From the IMG/VR virus record IMGVR_UViG_3300025073_000032, positions 1-64,000 of that record: a DNA stretch of 64,000 nt, one strand, 5' to 3'. This document shows positions 10,387-20,254 of this stretch, in pieces; position 1 is the first letter of the stretch, and each line of letters opens with the position of its first letter. A program made the position numbers and the translations under genes. This DNA is from a virus. Its lineage: Duplodnaviria; Caudoviricetes. The notes beneath the pieces are model-generated. The model saw only the letters and a program-made list of their open reading frames with translations. It was not told where the DNA came from and searched no databases.

Positions 10387-10685
10387 TTACCCTCTTGATT
10401 AAGCCCGAAATGAGTACCTATATTATGTAATAGCTTTCTTAAGCGTTCTTTTATAGTGCTTTCAGAAGCTATTGAGCTTATAGCCATCATATTTAGAGTA
10501 TGAATGTGTCTTATTACATCTTTTTCTAGCTCATTCATATCATCTTCATAGCTACGTTTTCTACTGTCATGTACCTGTTCCAGCTTACCATTTCTTACTC
10601 TTTGGTAGTCTGATTTATCCAATTCAATATCAGAGAACCCTTTACTTATCACGTTATCTGAATAATCATCCAAAGAAACTGACAT
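10383..10685 (-). CDS. Small protein carrying tag A (putative internal head protein)
   Basis: LDKSDYQRVRNGKLEQVHDSRKR; its stop overlaps the protease start. Confidence 0.65.
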   Translation of the reverse strand: MSVSLDDYSDNVISKGFSDIELDKSDYQRVRNGKLEQVHDSRKRSYEDDMNELEKDVIRHIHTLNMMAISSIASESTIKERLRKLLHNIGTHFGLNQEGK

Positions 10686-10856
10686 ACTATTTTACCCCTC
10701 TCTTTACTTTATAATGTATACTCACTGTTTGTCATTTTCTTTTTTCATTGTCTGTGTTTCGATAGTCTCAAGCAACTTATCTCCAACAGCATTTAGCTGC
10801 TTATAATATAACAGAATACTGTTTAATACCTGTTCAGCCTGTTCTTTCATCATAGC

Positions 10857-17400: not shown

Positions 17401-20254
17401 CAGGAGCATAACTTCCCATAGGTGACAAATAGGCAGCAGCTACAGCGTGAGTATCGATGGTTACACTATCAGGATCACTTGGGTCAATAATGTTATTATA
17501 AAAGTTCCGTACTTTATGAGCTTTACTGAGGTTAGGTGATATTGAAGCTCCATCTAGGATGTTCAGAGCTTTGGCAATCGTAGCAGCAGAGGTGAACCAG
17601 GAAGTCTCACCTTTAGTGTCTGTGGTTCTTTCCCCCTCAGGAGTATATACGCTTACTGGAGACTTGCCTTGCGCCTTGTTGTAAGCCAACAGCCAGATAG
17701 CTTTATATTCATTCCCTTCTACTTCTGCAAAGGTTTTACCTTCTATTTCAGACAGTACGCGAGAATCTACATACTGTGCCATTGCCTTATTCCAAGGCTC
17801 ATTCTGTTTGTTATTGTATGTTTCTATTACATGTTGTGCCAGATGCAAGTTCTGGAACCAGTCAAGCTGGGGAGACATTGTAGCAATCACTCCTGCTGCT
17901 TGTTCCTTTGTTATATTATACTTATCTCCCCATTCACCGGCTATCTTGTTAGCTCCTTCGTACCACTTTTTGGTGCTATTGATCTTATCAGGAGGAATTT
18001 GCTTAACCAACCACTCAAGGTTGTCGGTAAGCTGACCAATAAGTCTGGAGATGGTCTTTGCTGGCTGTTCCCCTTTAACTGTCTTAAATCCAGTGTACCC
18101 AGTTACAGATTCAGCATTCTTGGCAACCAGTTTAGGATTTTCTGCCAGGACTGCAACAAAAGTAAGATCACCTTCAAAATCTGCTCTAGGACTAACAGCT
18201 CCACCCTGCTTATGTGATACAGTAACAACTGGCTTTTTTGTCCTTTTATCGTGTACACGCTCAAGCTTGCCTAATCTAATTCTTGTGTAATCAGATTTCC
18301 GTATAGTAAACTTGCCGGTGTTAGGCTCAACCTGTCGTGCTCTGTCATCCCATATTTCTACTATGTCAGGAGTTTTCTTGTTAGTTACTTCAAGCCCATC
18401 AAGCCCGTTTTCTTTAAGCCATAACTCAACAAGAGGAATCTGTTCGTAAGAAGCAGCCCTAGCTGTAAATATCTTGAACTTTTTACCTTCGGCTATTCCT
18501 GCTTTGATTCTATCCAGCATAGGCTTTATAGGCTTACCTATTTGTCTAATATCATCACCATCACTGTATTTAGCCAAAGTCTTATCCAGATCTACTGCGA
18601 TGTAACCTGATTTAGTCAATCTCTCGACTTCTTGAGGATAAAAGGCAGCAATAACACTACCTAGTTGAGGATGATGTACTATGAAACCTTTATATCCTGC
18701 ATCTTTGATCTGTTTCTCATACTTTGTAACAGAGAATACACCATAATCTGTAGACAATGCTTTCAGATTATCAGGATCTTTTGCAAAGTCGTATATCTCA
18801 GTAGGATCAAATTCAGAGCCATACTTATGTGGTCCTAAATCTGCTTCTTTATTATGAAGTTCTCCTACATAAAAGTAAGTACGATCCACCCAGTTCTCTG
18901 GATCAGCTTTCTTACGCTTTACTTCAGCCCCAGCAAAGCCTGAACCATGAGCTGAAGGATCAAGCCTTACAAGATCATTTTTATGACTATAGTGAAATAC
19001 TTCATGCTTCACTCTATTATCATGTACCAGTTCAAGCTTTCCATTCCTTACTCGGTAGTAATTGGCTTTGCGCAAAGAAAATCTGTCAGCTATATACTCT
19101 CTTCTGTCTATTAGAGTACTTATCAGCTTCTCTCTAGTATTGATATCCCACATTGACCCATAAGTGTTCACAATGTGAGCTATATCACCATCGGTAATTT
19201 GAGTCACCTTGGCAGCACTTACTAATAGATCACTAGGTTTTATGCTAGAAAATACACTGGCAGCAGGAGCATTCACAGAAGGATCACGCAACGTATCTAT
19301 TTCGGTCACAGACGAGCCAAACTTGTTACCTTTAGCCTCTCCTCTTGCCCGATATAGCAAAGCTCCACCTACGTCAACTCTAATCGCTTTTCTATCAGAT
19401 GTTGACAGAAGGTTGTCATAACCATCCCCTACTGTGTCCCAATTAGCTAGCCAAGCATCAGTAACAAAACCCTCGTAGGTGCCTTTATGCTCTGGAGTTG
19501 CCAGTGTTCTTTCGATGCCATTCACCCACTTGCTAATTACGCCCAGTTGCCCGTTAGCATTGATGAAGTCGATCTTCGGAACAGCTACTCCTGCAAGCTC
19601 ATACAGCTTTGCAGCTATCACTTCGTTGACCGCTCTATTCTTGTCAGAAGGTACTTTAATATAATACCTCTGACCGGCTTTATCTTCATAAATGCCGCCG
19701 GGATTACTCCCTAATGGGCCACTGACCTTTGTCAGGCTTTGATAGAAGCTCTCTTTCTTGATTCTGGAATCATGAACATACTCAAGCTTTCCATTCCTCA
19801 CTCTATAGTAGTTAGCTTTATTTATCATTTGATGTTCCAAAATATACTTTACAGGATTAGCTTGAACAGTAATCTCTGCTTTTAAATTTTTACCTAACTT
19901 ATTGGCAGCAAACCACCTATGATGACCATCTTCTAAGTATAATTTACCGTCTTGCTTAATAGATACTTCCACAGGCTCATCGAAACTAACTGAGTTTACC
20001 CAGGACATGCCCTCTTTCTTGTACTTATACTCAGGATTTTCTATGTCAGACAAATAAATATTTATATCTGAAGGTTTAAGAGATACTATTTGGCCTGAAG
20101 TTACTCCGAAAGCTAAAGTGTCTAGCTCTTCGATATCCATAGCTATTAATTCATCTTCAGTATAGTGCTTTACTACTTTATTATGTACATGCTCTATTTT
20201 ACCGTTTCGCACTCTTACATAGTCAGACTTACTAATAGTAAACTTCGTAGCCAT
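14483..20254 (-). CDS. Polyvalent multidomain protein (ParB-like, kinase-like, ART-like, HAD, HhH/DUF7178-like, R-S-E ADP-ribosyltransferase-like)
   Basis: 1923 aa; LEDGHHR; GSNPGG..YIK..NEVIAAKLY..DAWLANWD..DN..RVDVG; VFHYS..RTYFY..DAGYKG; IAVDLDKTL..IFTAR..WDD; WY..MSPQ..KVRNF..VTIDTH..LQSVVW; TLYRG..ESWT..EKE. Modules are separated by repeated tags or K-S/A sites. Confidence 0.8.
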   Translation of the reverse strand: MATKFTISKSDYVRVRNGKIEHVHNKVVKHYTEDELIAMDIEELDTLAFGVTSGQIVSLKPSDINIYLSDIENPEYKYKKEGMSWVNSVSFDEPVEVSIKQDGKLYLEDGHHRWFAANKLGKNLKAEITVQANPVKYILEHQMINKANYYRVRNGKLEYVHDSRIKKESFYQSLTKVSGPLGSNPGGIYEDKAGQRYYIKVPSDKNRAVNEVIAAKLYELAGVAVPKIDFINANGQLGVISKWVNGIERTLATPEHKGTYEGFVTDAWLANWDTVGDGYDNLLSTSDRKAIRVDVGGALLYRARGEAKGNKFGSSVTEIDTLRDPSVNAPAASVFSSIKPSDLLVSAAKVTQITDGDIAHIVNTYGSMWDINTREKLISTLIDRREYIADRFSLRKANYYRVRNGKLELVHDNRVKHEVFHYSHKNDLVRLDPSAHGSGFAGAEVKRKKADPENWVDRTYFYVGELHNKEADLGPHKYGSEFDPTEIYDFAKDPDNLKALSTDYGVFSVTKYEKQIKDAGYKGFIVHHPQLGSVIAAFYPQEVERLTKSGYIAVDLDKTLAKYSDGDDIRQIGKPIKPMLDRIKAGIAEGKKFKIFTARAASYEQIPLVELWLKENGLDGLEVTNKKTPDIVEIWDDRARQVEPNTGKFTIRKSDYTRIRLGKLERVHDKRTKKPVVTVSHKQGGAVSPRADFEGDLTFVAVLAENPKLVAKNAESVTGYTGFKTVKGEQPAKTISRLIGQLTDNLEWLVKQIPPDKINSTKKWYEGANKIAGEWGDKYNITKEQAAGVIATMSPQLDWFQNLHLAQHVIETYNNKQNEPWNKAMAQYVDSRVLSEIEGKTFAEVEGNEYKAIWLLAYNKAQGKSPVSVYTPEGERTTDTKGETSWFTSAATIAKALNILDGASISPNLSKAHKVRNFYNNIIDPSDPDSVTIDTHAVAAAYLSPMGSYAPEVLHNFGSADVTRGINKPGTGKGVQGTYYVVADAYRKAAGRLGLLPRELQSVVWEYIREVFPKEFKKRNESKEIFNVWNEYTKGRKTIDEARSEVAKLWRSDHKLDGGPKNPSDKGKLRKSVLWAKCHPGGLGARTACGDSRRLVILSANKPTSNLRVVKSMGTVASTPDPKPSLIPMVKIVHKKGKTFPQKYWVDPNKDSKSVLQSVKKESIKHEQAKEVDAPTINLWNKIQQLVETFTVSSFGEAKMEVSAEPWGAVDNGNVINFTFGYDKKYSKLLAVTLPKNGENEAKIRNPMRILDSDEIILNKAMFAEALSWLYRQGIKRVVLETPSLQTLDDVSVFQHYTKFNNFITQEFKAKKVSDSFVIETEPFAKNDTYESYTNYRDIQTLYSQLESKAQEVSKLKSILNTNVKFTEEQSSRLDLLKNQLDVSISNLYDNNKDALYALYSMSYWDASNYSGIRRYLIDYFLELNDSKTSNVIKSISELSVSQKSGSLMVTDDVVKSSTVISQLTESWKSSSRSVGAQLLQQYVSEFTNTKRPSYFTQQCNRVQFDDTVEWLQGTKLESVIKDYIKSVYDTTQEEITGLSDTKAKAEAQIKQAKADYDIAMVKFRSKIGFLKSSLLESIAESGLDENSYLFRHVTDVSKIDSYSSADIVFDSIIELKVNKVTDVAMSVLAGQIEDIKDTWAVWGKLTAKYADMPQGVDGSDDSITLYRGVSDAYTASSTLESWTTERHVAEEFDGGAVIQKNIPKSAIYCWWGSKNWRHKEVGSLYDTEKEFVVIADRIPPDENKKETKFSIKAAFDIALQVINAKSMFFHEGSSYEEDSKVMLDLVQRAGGVDAYRLKKVLRYTEDSGLEHSISFEGAEVLVDALIGYWGKSAIESMLVENAYDINEVAKHVELAETLIHDNTKMVDIDIEDYDIEDIQSLIHYVGKKDINVNSLSEKLTLSAKQAHMLYKILADNWDIIWS
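16966..17136 (-). CDS. Candidate nested out-of-frame small acidic protein (56 aa)
   Basis: MKQDQKLQNSGDPITSLMVGLKIPLTKENYVKVCYGPNVTLEDLGPEQLAEIPEDL, AAAGGA upstream; the host frame looks linker-like over this interval. Confidence 0.55.
   Translation of the reverse strand: MKQDQKLQNSGDPITSLMVGLKIPLTKENYVKVCYGPNVTLEDLGPEQLAEIPEDL

Follow-up and report, generated by a model that had tools for sequence, protein, structure and literature searches.

The window analysed here, a 64,000-nt stretch of DNA, comes from an uncultured phage and belongs to a genome of 102,805 bp that is represented by one contig and carries a completeness rating of 100%. Three genes of its head module bear a short repeated peptide, Tag A; they lie around the portal gene, overlap both it and the protease gene, and are linked in translation with the genes for the head (Table 1). 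The largest of them encodes a 1923-aa protein made up of four Tag A modules followed by a C-terminal part of ~810 aa headed by Tag B; Pfam detected no MuF domain in this protein.

Table 1. Head-module features in window coordinates; Tag A positions refer to the 19-residue cores.
Feature	Position	Strand	Remarks
Major capsid protein site K22-A23	8839..8844	-	Sole such site in 472 aa
Scaffold gene	8944..9558	-	Nine hydrophobic-x-K[SA] sites; chief support from within this genome for the cleavage rule
Prohead protease gene (HK97 gp4-like)	9583..10386	-	phrog_1028, E=2e-61; presumed K-[S/A] cutter
Protease site K182-A183	9838-9843	-	Second K-[S/A] site of the protease
Protease site K162-S163	9898-9903	-	Family-invariant site
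100-aa one-tag gene	10383..10685	-	Stop overlaps protease start; absent from relative
Tag A copy 7	10560..10616	-	K24 of 100-aa protein; regex and profile match; 23-residue leader in front, conserved in P0005, P0007 and P0015
336-aa two-tag gene (SAM lyase and helical module)	11903..12913	-	Overlaps portal gene end
Tag A copy 6	12206..12262	-	K218 of 336-aa protein; turn NN-R instead of NG-K; regex and profile match; heads C-terminal module, ~118 aa, predicted helical
Tag A copy 5	12803..12859	-	K19 of 336-aa protein; regex and profile match; heads SAM-lyase domain
Portal gene	12882..14420	-	Pfam Phage_portal, 61.3 bits; phrog_15361, E=4e-43; tagged genes on both sides
1923-aa multi-module ("polyvalent-like") gene	14483..20254	-	ORF, domains, homology blocks; directly upstream of portal gene
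Tag A copy 4	18242..18298	-	K653 of 1923-aa protein; regex and profile match; heads DUF7178 module
Site K548-S549	18608..18613	-	Tagless hydrophobic-x-K-S at boundary of unknown domain and HAD-like domain, 1923-aa protein
Tag A copy 3	19013..19069	-	K396 of 1923-aa protein, K-A form; regex and profile match; heads unknown domain, then HAD-like domain
Tag A copy 2	19763..19819	-	K146 of 1923-aa protein, K-A form; regex and profile match; heads 250-aa module with weak HipA-like kinase match
Tag A copy 1	20174..20230	-	K9 of 1923-aa protein; regex and profile match, 68.1 bits; 8-residue leader with Ile at P3; heads weakly ParB-like module

The consensus of Tag A, K[SA]xYxRxxNGKxExVH[DN]xR, occurs in exactly seven copies, all on the minus strand and all within the three head-module genes, in agreement with the first-pass annotation, whose peptide strings were as written and whose coordinates were accurate to within a few bases. 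A strict regular expression (K[SA].Y.R..[NL][GN][KR].E.VH[DN]) matched exactly seven times when the window was translated in all six frames, and mononucleotide shuffles (n=100) gave a mean of 0 matches for each of three expressions, the strict one and two looser ones. No eighth copy was found by regular expression across the whole genome. A profile search gave seven Tag A matches out of eight candidates scored at E<=1, and a local hmmsearch returned seven Tag A domains at 59.5–64.6 bits, with the runner-up at 5.3 bits. The motif reaches upstream to a hydrophobic residue at position -3, giving [LIVF]-x-K-[SA]. Searches for an already characterised repeat matched none: Pfam returned no match to Tag A, and the uncharacterised family phrog_21154 matched 5 of 20 tags. 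Pairwise, the copies are only 47–68% identical in DNA, and 134 of 279 same-residue codon pairs differ in codon, demonstrating that Tag A is conserved at the peptide level, with K, Y, R, V and H invariant. The longest exact DNA run common to two copies is 17 nt, and the copies are not recent duplications.

Among the tagged modules in the window, the Pfam cut-offs were passed only by the SAM lyase (S-AdoMet_lyase at residues 67-178 of the 336-aa protein, 37.7 bits where the cut-off is 28) and by DUF7178 (116 bits) in the 1923-aa protein. The ParB-like module (ParBc_2, E=0.005; phrog_1033, E=1.1e-4) and the HipA-like module (HipA_2, E=0.038) of the latter protein fell below the cut-off in Pfam, and the labels ParB-like and kinase-like are weak. 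Residues 544-641 of the same protein match phrog_1238 (E=8.5e-10) as a HAD-like domain, and the C-terminal module of the 336-aa protein is predicted by AlphaFold2, with modest confidence, to contain helices at 241-260 and 267-295. Both the S-AdoMet_lyase and DUF7178 domains lie between tags, and the homology blocks shared with a relative phage begin at tags, bearing out the proposal that each copy stands at a module N-terminus and never inside a domain.

This relative (G001, 103.5 kb) has six Tag A copies in front of the same modules, which are arranged in another order. Residues 144-570 of the window protein correspond to residues 448-877 in the relative, in a shared block that starts at copy 2, and residues 653-1075 correspond to residues 6-427, in a block that begins at a tag in both; the two blocks are permuted between the phages. 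The C-terminal part of the 1923-aa protein, which lacks Tag A, has an ORF of its own (854 aa) in the relative, and modules have been gained or lost between tags. The tags are thus directly seen to move with the modules that they head. Outside the two phages, 13 tags were found in 12 metagenomic proteins, N-terminal in nine of them and otherwise at internal junctions; the tags precede SAM lyase (P0005), topoisomerase IB (P0014), NUDIX and InPase (P0018) and unknown domains. All 26 tags taken together comprise 14 N-terminal, 12 internal and no C-terminal copies, and the bias for module starts is upheld both in the relative, with its shuffled modules, and in the 12 other proteins. The hairpin core is common to AT-rich and GC-rich phages with otherwise unrelated proteins, and the GC-rich phages encode the same tag peptide in different codons. 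The tag carrier P0005 and the protease homologue P0021 are each located on a contig of 2,495 bp, which is the one hint that outside carriers may sit in the head module.

The second part of Tag A is predicted to form a 6+6-residue beta-hairpin, YxR(V/I)R-NG-K(L/I)ExVH, with a DxR(V/I)K tail. AlphaFold2 modelled a 20-sequence tag alignment as strands 16-21 and 24-29 around an NG turn, with a mean pLDDT of 93 over residues 21-30, and natural insertions are confined to the turn (NG to DPRTG or DSRSG), so that the strand-NG-strand hairpin suggested earlier is supported as a model. When the whole 336-aa protein was modelled, both tags again appeared as hairpins, but at pLDDT <40. The K-[S/A] pair lies in an unstructured stretch just before the first strand, and the hairpin always starts two residues past the putative scissile bond. 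Judged from the strand register of the model, the conserved face presents an invariant Glu, next to which stands a near-invariant Asp that follows the second strand, and the first 22 residues have a net charge of only +2 to +5. These features would suit a specific contact with a protein no less than unspecific binding to DNA.

The first part of the tag resembles a protease site. The window protease belongs to a family of 434 homologues (E<=1e-5), has a capsid-protein-like C-terminal extension, and shows a modestly supported homology to HK97 gp4 (hhalign E=3.4e-4, probability 37.6%, His and Ser motifs in register). Its K162 is kept in 64 of 64 homologues, and position 163 is S in 58 of them and A in 6. 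The scaffold contains nine hydrophobic-x-K[SA] sites against 0.84 expected (z=9.4, the top of 145 ORFs) and the protease five against 0.99; the pattern is also enriched in the relative's scaffold (8 against 1.13 expected), in the protease-scaffold fusion of Chryseobacterium phage MA9V-3 (18 against 1.89) and in phage K ORF43 (7 against 1.15). In alignment, the capsid site K22-A23 coincides with the first residue of 9row_B, the mature capsid chain of phage 812 (439 aa, against 463 aa for 5lii_P at full length), and mature HK97 gp5 chains in the PDB begin at residue 104, preceded by TFNK (hydrophobic-x-K-S), both mature N-termini being taken from deposited chain lengths. In the tags, P3 is L, I, V or F in 26 of 26 and P1' is S in 24 and A in 2; the hydrophobic-x-K-[S/A] at the Tag A start therefore matches in pattern the rule that we infer for the HK97-like prohead protease. 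The first-pass annotation had proposed cleavage after K, leaving the tag as the new N-terminus. The pattern lends that cleavage indirect support, and no hydrophobic-x-K[SA] site was found after the hairpin in the tags, suggesting that the tag, if cut, would be retained and not discarded.

Our preferred reading, to which we give a little less than an even chance, sees in Tag A a portable cargo header (~25 residues): a protease would cut the modules apart, and the hairpin would be kept on the enzymes, most likely to load them into the head. Its first part would be a site for the HK97-type prohead protease (P3 hydrophobic, P1 Lys, P1' Ser or Ala), and the tagged products would be enzymes of the sort that accompany phage DNA into the host, SAM lyase being an example. 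The tagged proteins would be built into the procapsid, where the hairpin would bind a conserved component inside the head; the hairpin is the likely address label, since it is the only element common to the tagged proteins. The activated protease would then cut every K-[S/A], a step deduced from motif statistics, degrading the scaffold and splitting the 1923-aa and 336-aa precursors. Since the cut would fall before the hairpin, each mature enzyme would begin with a hairpin, whereas the T4 targeting peptide is discarded, and by analogy the enzymes may exit with the DNA at infection. Internal tags would be superfluous for loading while the modules form one polypeptide, yet they are conserved as well as the N-terminal ones, which points to a role after cleavage. 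Not every putative fragment bears a hairpin, as the tagless K548-S549 shows: the HAD-like part that follows it and the InPase part of P0018 have none. The scaffold and capsid sites also lack it, and the hairpin is therefore not required for cutting.

Conservation of the internal copies would also fit a post-cleavage role of another kind, in which the retained basic hairpin binds packaged DNA, the portal or the tail channel as a DNA-binding or ejection signal and not for loading, a reading that we consider a serious rival, though rather unlikely. It agrees with a tag that lies downstream of the putative cut with no later site, with the possession of a copy by each separately released tagged module, with the positive net charge, and with a core common to phages of different base composition, as might be expected for a universal partner such as DNA. 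However, the charge is modest, the conserved face has an invariant Glu with a near-invariant Asp past the second strand, no DNA-binding family was matched in Pfam or Foldseek, and tagless putative fragments exist. It is also conceivable, but unlikely, that K-[S/A] stays uncut and the tag acts between modules as a structural linker or an oligomerisation strand, or else acts only inside the infected cell, for example by bringing every enzyme to a common host or phage target. Cleavage is, after all, deduced from motif statistics, conserved residues occupy both hairpin faces, as they would in a packed or bound element, and some tags follow leaders of 5-8 residues, where cutting would remove almost nothing. 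Against this, the P3/P1/P1' pattern equals the protease rule in every tag, the preference for S over A mirrors that at the protease's own site, and the two-ORF arrangement and reordering in the relative indicate that the modules need no fixed covalent arrangement.

We regard it as distinctly unlikely that the hairpin is a dock for the protease only, presenting the K-[S/A] of folded, non-scaffold substrates and perhaps also recruiting cargo by riding on the still-inactive protease, with no role after the cut. The fixed two-residue spacing, the large conserved protease family, and the C-terminal extension, which could bring the protease into the procapsid, would suit such a dock, but there is no hairpin at the nine scaffold sites, the capsid site or the protease's own sites, the domain boundary at K548-S is tagless, and the proteases T4 gp21 (PMC9026906) and SPN3US gp245 (PMC10052503) recognise short motifs in the passages that describe them. 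That the repeats are mainly recombination junctions for module exchange, kept by descent, is highly improbable: block boundaries between the two phages do fall at tags and two copies share an exact run of 17 nt, but five residues are invariant in divergent DNA, half of the same-residue codons differ, and GC-rich phages write the same peptide in other codons, which argues that selection acts on the peptide.

A cargo header of this kind would have parallels in known systems. The mature start of HK97 gp5 has the same hydrophobic-x-K-S pattern as the Tag A start; to our knowledge, HK97 has no packaged enzyme cargo or hairpin tag. Encapsulin cargo-loading peptides are short and C-terminal, and direct enzymes into an HK97-fold shell with no known link to a protease, and the N-terminal packaging signal of phage P1 DarB directs the protein into the phage head and needs helper proteins. 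By analogy, Tag A may resemble both, as a short peptide directing enzymes into a shell or head; we know of neither as a repeated internal motif.

The closest descriptions concern T4, giant phages and polyvalent proteins. As outlined in passages of a T4 review, internal proteins IPI-III carry an N-terminal capsid targeting sequence (CTS) that routes cargo into the prohead for gp21 processing, the internal proteins, which include anti-restriction functions, are ejected with DNA, and the CTS has been proposed as an evolutionary device to load varied proteins (PMC9026906). As there described, the CTS and Tag A are alike in being short shared elements on unrelated proteins, coupled to a prohead-protease site that in Tag A is putative. 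However, the CTS (~10 residues) precedes the cut and is lost, whereas Tag A (~25 residues) follows the putative cut and would be retained; Tag A is a predicted beta-hairpin that also occurs internally, with up to four per polypeptide, and its cleavage rule would be Lys-Ser/Ala, whereas the T4 rule ends in Glu. In the giant phages SPN3US and phiKZ, whose ejection proteins mature by proteolysis, the prohead protease cuts many internal head proteins at a short motif, removes its own C-terminal part, cleaves scaffold-like propeptides at several sites, and removes N-terminal propeptides of 20-254 residues (PMC10052503). The motif there differs from K-[S/A], and in the passages concerned there is no description of a conserved hairpin that is retained or of the processing of one polyprotein into several enzymes. 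Polyvalent proteins, which occur in phages and conjugative elements, combine many unrelated effector domains in one polypeptide (Iyer et al. 2017, PMC5512222). The main-text passages of that study place their genes beside portal and packaging genes, predict that the products are packaged and injected, and discuss proteolytic release of domains, crediting it to built-in metallopeptidase domains; neither a tag repeated from domain to domain nor inter-domain sites for a prohead protease are mentioned in them. The 1923-aa protein is like the polyvalent proteins described there in having many modules in one polypeptide and a gene beside the portal gene, and InPase, described among the polyvalent domains, follows Tag A in P0018.

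The seven copies of Tag A, K[SA]xYxRxxNG+xExVHDxR, proved to be a genuine repeat, more regular than the first-pass annotation had described. The strict pattern K[SA].Y.R..[NL][GN][KR].E.VH[DN] matched exactly seven times in the window, always on the minus strand, and it was found neither in 100 shuffles nor in the remainder of the 102,805-bp genome, a record rated complete whose long ORFs lie nearly all on the minus strand. A profile built from the tags likewise gave seven matches in the genome, at 59.5-64.6 bits, and the next stretch scored 5.3 bits. DNA identity between copies was only 47-68% in pairwise comparison, and 134 of the 279 codon pairs encoding the same residue used different codons, therefore indicating selection on the Tag A peptide itself; recent duplication or gene conversion was rejected on this divergence.

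Genes of the head region, in their order on the minus strand, followed by other features (window positions unless a locus is named; ↓, putative protease cut)
Feature	Coordinates	Strand	Content
1923-aa ORF	14483-20254	minus	Tag A x4, Lys at residues 9, 146, 396, 653
Portal gene		minus	Pfam Phage_portal; 1923-aa gene directly upstream
336-aa ORF	11903-12913	minus	Tag A x2, Lys at residues 19, 218; Pfam S-AdoMet_lyase 37.7 bits, residues 67-178
349-aa gene		minus	
100-aa ORF	10383-10685	minus	Tag A x1, Lys at residue 24
Prohead protease		minus	phrog_1028 'head maturation protease', E=2e-61
Scaffold		minus	phrog_15087
Major capsid protein		minus	phrog_752, E=5e-94
Tag B, window	11784-11906, 16796-16930, ~23156-23293		
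Tag B, relative (L002)	11233-11367, 16287-16406		
Protease residues 162-267	9583-9903		K162↓S, insert, capsid-like segment
Capsid N-terminus	8740-8907		K22↓A
Last scaffold site	8944-9060		VLK↓SEYV
HAD-like start, window	18580-18613		GYIAVDL
HAD-like remnant, relative (L001)	~5140-5170		ahead of fourth tag
MA9V-3 protease-scaffold fusion (L003)	7303-8901		532 aa, annotated hypothetical

The extended consensus reads hydrophobic-x-K-[S/A]-[DN]-Y-x-R-[VI]-R-N-G-K-[LI]-E-x-V-H-D-x-R-[VI]-K, with Lys, Tyr, Arg, Val and His invariant across 20 aligned tags. From the 20-tag alignment AlphaFold2 predicted a hairpin of two strands, 16-21 and 24-29, with the NG turn between them (mean pLDDT 93 over residues 21-30), and placed the K-[S/A] pair in an unstructured stretch immediately ahead of strand 1. 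GC-rich carriers have a turn two residues longer (DPRTG or DSRSG) with the same strands, and this lengthening of the turn alone is independent support for the hairpin, so that the strand-NG-strand pattern proposed from the first reading gains support from two sides. When the 336-aa protein was modelled in full, both tags were again hairpins, at pLDDT <40, and were not docked on the enzyme domain. We infer from the modelled fold that one face of the hairpin carries Tyr, two Arg, Lys, Glu and Val, and the other the hydrophobic V/I and L/I positions and His. Tag A did not correspond to any already characterised repeat. Pfam searches at E<=1, run with two segments of the tag and with seven of its carriers, yielded no family over the tag (best SlpA, E=0.15), the tag model had 0 Foldseek matches in the PDB at E<=0.001 among 9 at E<=10, residues 136-175 had no usable match in the ESM Atlas, and the sole PHROGs match, seen in 5 of the 20 tags, was phrog_21154, a family of unknown function. 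The hairpin presumably bears some resemblance to the arms of HU/IHF and to AP2-like sheets.

Several patterns suggest that Tag A begins at a prohead protease site. When we counted [LIVMFC].K[SA] against expectation in the 145 ORFs of the genome, the scaffold ranked highest of all (9 sites vs 0.84 expected, z=9.4) and the protease next (5 vs 0.99); the tagged proteins were also enriched (336-aa, 4 vs 0.84; 1923-aa, 14 vs 7.4), the capsid protein had the single site K22↓A, and the genome-wide total was barely raised (102 vs 85.6). Three other phages were counted with [LIVMF].K[SA], namely a related 103,540-bp contig, hereafter the relative (25 ORFs examined; scaffold 8 vs 1.13 expected, protease 4 vs 0.76), Chryseobacterium phage MA9V-3 (8 genes examined; protease-scaffold fusion 18 vs 1.89) and Staphylococcus phage K (8 genes examined; ORF43 7 vs 1.15, ORF42 4 vs 1.01). 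The capsid N-terminus of MA9V-3 has the same hydrophobic-x-K[SA] form, and the sole site in the phage K capsid protein is K24↓S. Among 64 aligned homologues of the window protease, position K162 is Lys in every one, followed by Ser in 58 and Ala in 6, and the residue two before it is always L, V, I or F. Deposited capsid chains of phage 812 have 463 aa (5lii) and 439 aa (9row), the latter starting exactly after the capsid-site Lys, in alignment with A23 of the window capsid protein, and deposited mature HK97 capsid chains start at residue 104, after TFNK. In all 26 tags that we collected, L, I, V or F occupies position -3 and the Lys is followed by Ser (24) or Ala (2). Site enrichment, protease invariance, deposited chain starts and the 26 tags therefore led us to adopt hydrophobic-x-K↓[S/A] as the probable cleavage rule and to regard Tag A as starting at one such putative site. 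The literature offered no usable passage on mature N-termini of SPO1/Twort-like capsid proteins or on HK97 103/104. We also considered that the Ser of K↓S might act as the nucleophile in self-cleavage, helped by the conserved His/Asp, and rejected this because two copies have Ala there.

The protease assignment comes from PHROGs (phrog_1028), yet the window protein had no Pfam match; we found 434 homologues, and PF04586 was recorded for 1 among the 120 homologues listed. Alignment of the family with HK97 gp4 was weak (hhalign E=3.4e-4, probability 37.6%), the His and Ser motifs of the two falling at matching positions. Downstream of the invariant K162↓S, the window protease has a Cys-rich insert and then K182↓ALETGYEQ...GGAALRKQS, a segment that copies the capsid N-terminus, K22↓ALTTGYEQ...GGAALRVQS. 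The insert is missing from 26 of the 64 homologues, which have K↓S directly ahead of the capsid-like segment, and phage K ORF42 shows the same mimicry. These sequences suggest that the protease may gain entry to the shell through mimicry of the capsid N-arm and afterwards release itself by cleavage. MA9V-3 (PV245944.1), the source of the fusion, is a cultured 103-kb phage with a capsid protein 30% identical and without Tag A.

Both the 336-aa and the 100-aa tagged gene are situated between portal and protease, in a head region where several genes overlap their neighbors and the capsid protein has ~40% identity to counterparts in SPO1-like Bacillus phages. The 1923-aa protein consists of at least five blocks, bounded by tags and homology breaks. 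DUF7178 alone exceeded the Pfam cut-off, and the ParB-like, HipA-like kinase and HAD-like labels are weak or derived from PHROGs. A Pfam search of the C-terminal 848 aa and of the untagged 854-aa ORF in the relative gave no Phage_Mu_F match at E<=0.5.

Comparison with the relative showed tags moving together with modules. A degenerate DNA pattern searched against viral contigs retrieved this one related contig, with six tags and no further ones, and a scan of metagenomes found the same contig (G001) again. In place of a single polyprotein it has two ORFs, a 1070-aa one containing four tagged modules and the 854-aa ORF. Residues 144-570 of the window's 1923-aa protein correspond to 448-877 in the relative (62% identity), and 653-1075 to 6-427 (55%); both shared blocks start at tags, and their order is permuted between the two phages. 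The window module at 9-145 and the HAD-like part are absent from the relative, and the module after its fourth tag differs from the window's. A motif in this fourth module prompted the label JAB/RadC-like, for which Pfam gave no support. Just ahead of the fourth tag is a short remnant of the window's HAD-like start (GYIAVDL), which, running into a tag and a different module, looks like a scar of module replacement.

The Tag A profile gave only 12 matches at E<=0.001 among 1.84 billion representative proteins, one of which, the repeat protein P0009, was judged false. Longer proteins, searched by a word index, yielded 16 matches. Outside the two phages we counted 13 tags in 12 metagenomic proteins, where a tag accompanies a SAM lyase (P0005), topoisomerase IB (P0014), NUDIX and InPase domains (P0018) or unknown domains (P0007, P0008, P0010, P0011, P0012, P0015, P0016 and P0017), and P0006 carries two tags. 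Of the 26 tags, those of the relative included, 14 place their Lys at residue 24 or earlier, in 14 proteins with different domains, 12 are internal at module starts, and none is C-terminal, so that the position at module starts noticed in the first reading holds throughout. A tblastn search of cultured phages with a tag found no match at E<=10, two tag patterns had no match in 185,579 species genomes, a DNA pattern for the +2 loop had none in viral contigs, and no related loci were found in viral contigs with the 1923-aa protein, P0012, P0008 or P0018. The 336-aa protein had only 2 homologues.

Some of these carriers have features of their own. P0005 and P0021, a protease with 59% identity to that of the window, each come from a 2,495-bp contig, probably the same one. 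P0005 and the window's 100-aa protein have the same 19-residue tag and share an N-terminal leader; the phage encoding P0021 may thus have a tagged SAM lyase in the position of the 100-aa gene. In the middle of P0018 (923 aa), an intein-like insert, recognized by eye from a LAGLIDADG-like stretch and a His-Asn-Cys junction, appears to separate the enzyme parts.

Other elements occur in comparable positions. One of them, a motif that we call Tag B (P-[VI]-x-K-x-V-x3-G-[KR]-T-x4-Y-W), stands at the head of both the 349-aa protein and the C-terminal part, lacking Tag A, of the 1923-aa protein, with a looser form in a 513-aa protein, and is located 8-20 residues after a hydrophobic-x-K↓[S/A] site; a common origin with Tag A was not detectable (hhalign probability 0.12). 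A third hairpin-like variant, GYTRR..KGNLVRV, is present at ~55-95 in P0006 (766 aa), after a hydrophobic-x-K↓A site and upstream of both Tag A copies, a hint that 'site plus hairpin' headers may be a broader class. In the scaffold, the final site VLK↓SEYV is similar to the first residues of Tag A (profile score only 2.3 bits), and the GGIPVTQTEV that follows it resembles GLIPVQKTVT at the Tag B start of the 349-aa protein. Such likenesses might mean that the tags mimic a part of the scaffold contacting the shell.

Among the possible roles of the hairpin, we tentatively rank loading, together with processing, first. The hairpin is the only element common to a set of proteins that would each have to reach the head alone, namely the outside carriers, the 336-aa and 100-aa proteins and the product of the 1070-aa ORF in the relative; as the sole shared element it is an obvious candidate loading signal, comparable to the T4 capsid targeting sequence (CTS; PMC9026906). 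Second is a role after cleavage, in DNA binding or ejection, as the first-pass annotation had proposed for a retained basic hairpin. The sole rule-matching site precedes the hairpin, with no further one downstream, so the hairpin would stay on the mature enzyme, consistent with a part in remaining on the DNA or exiting via the tail. Internal copies have been kept although loading one polypeptide would not need them, and the 22 residues after the putative cut have a net charge of +2 to +5; however, the conserved face includes an invariant Glu. The retention part of that proposal is thus supported at the motif level, given a likely cut, and DNA binding or ejection is a candidate function. The sites in scaffold, capsid and protease have no hairpin, so it is not needed for cutting, and a predicted complex of the catalytic part of the protease, residues 1-160 (64-row alignment), with a 44-aa tag (20-row) scored 0.00, which counts neither way on binding; a hairpin serving as a docking element for the protease, an uncleaved connector or a recombination scar ranks behind both the loading and the DNA-binding readings.

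Injection of ready-made enzymes allows a phage to disarm host defences before its own genes are expressed. To our knowledge, T4 is the only phage for which the selection of unrelated enzymes for loading is understood, with partial insight for P1 and giant phages. A far-reaching reading, which we regard as rather doubtful, is that Tag A, Tag B and the P0006 variant would be interchangeable 'Lys↓Ser-plus-hairpin' headers of a cargo system general to phages with HK97-type proteases, in which the header would bring about loading into the procapsid, the maturation protease would release the protein, and the hairpin would be kept as a passport on the genome and through the tail, its ~20 residues alone sufficing for loading and delivery of a foreign protein. 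Already as a cargo header, Tag A would account for the stringing together of enzymes in one gene with separate proteins still being delivered, for the entry of new enzymes into the cargo set by acquiring the header, and for the free order of modules. The predictions are cheap ones, that N-termini in particles start S/A-D-Y and that tag-reporter fusions are loaded. A sufficient hairpin would provide a small tag with which proteins could be packed into phage heads. For this large prohead protease family, hydrophobic-x-K↓S/A would be a usable cleavage rule.

The literature searched contained no match to four Tag A motif strings. The nearest analogues are the T4 CTS, the polyvalent proteins and giant-phage propeptides, the latter as presented in the relevant passages of PMC10052503. 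Like the CTS, Tag A is a shared short element, N-terminal on otherwise unrelated proteins (14 of 26 tags) and coupled, at the motif level, to a prohead protease site pattern (26 of 26). In contrast, 12 of 26 copies are internal, which the T4 element never is, and Tag A would be retained, judging by the position of the site, whereas the T4 element is discarded; the CTS, as described in the passages of PMC9026906 that deal with it, is short and follows another protease rule. Polyvalent proteins combine two to fifteen unrelated effector domains per polypeptide, and the passages of Iyer et al. 2017 (PMC5512222) on their processing ascribe it to built-in metallopeptidases and do not mention an inter-domain tag. 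The 1923-aa protein resembles them in its at least five blocks, one of them Pfam-supported, and in being encoded beside portal and head genes, but MuF, common although not universal in phage members, was not detected here by Pfam. Tag A is thus a variant on known cargo-targeting and polyvalent-protein themes.
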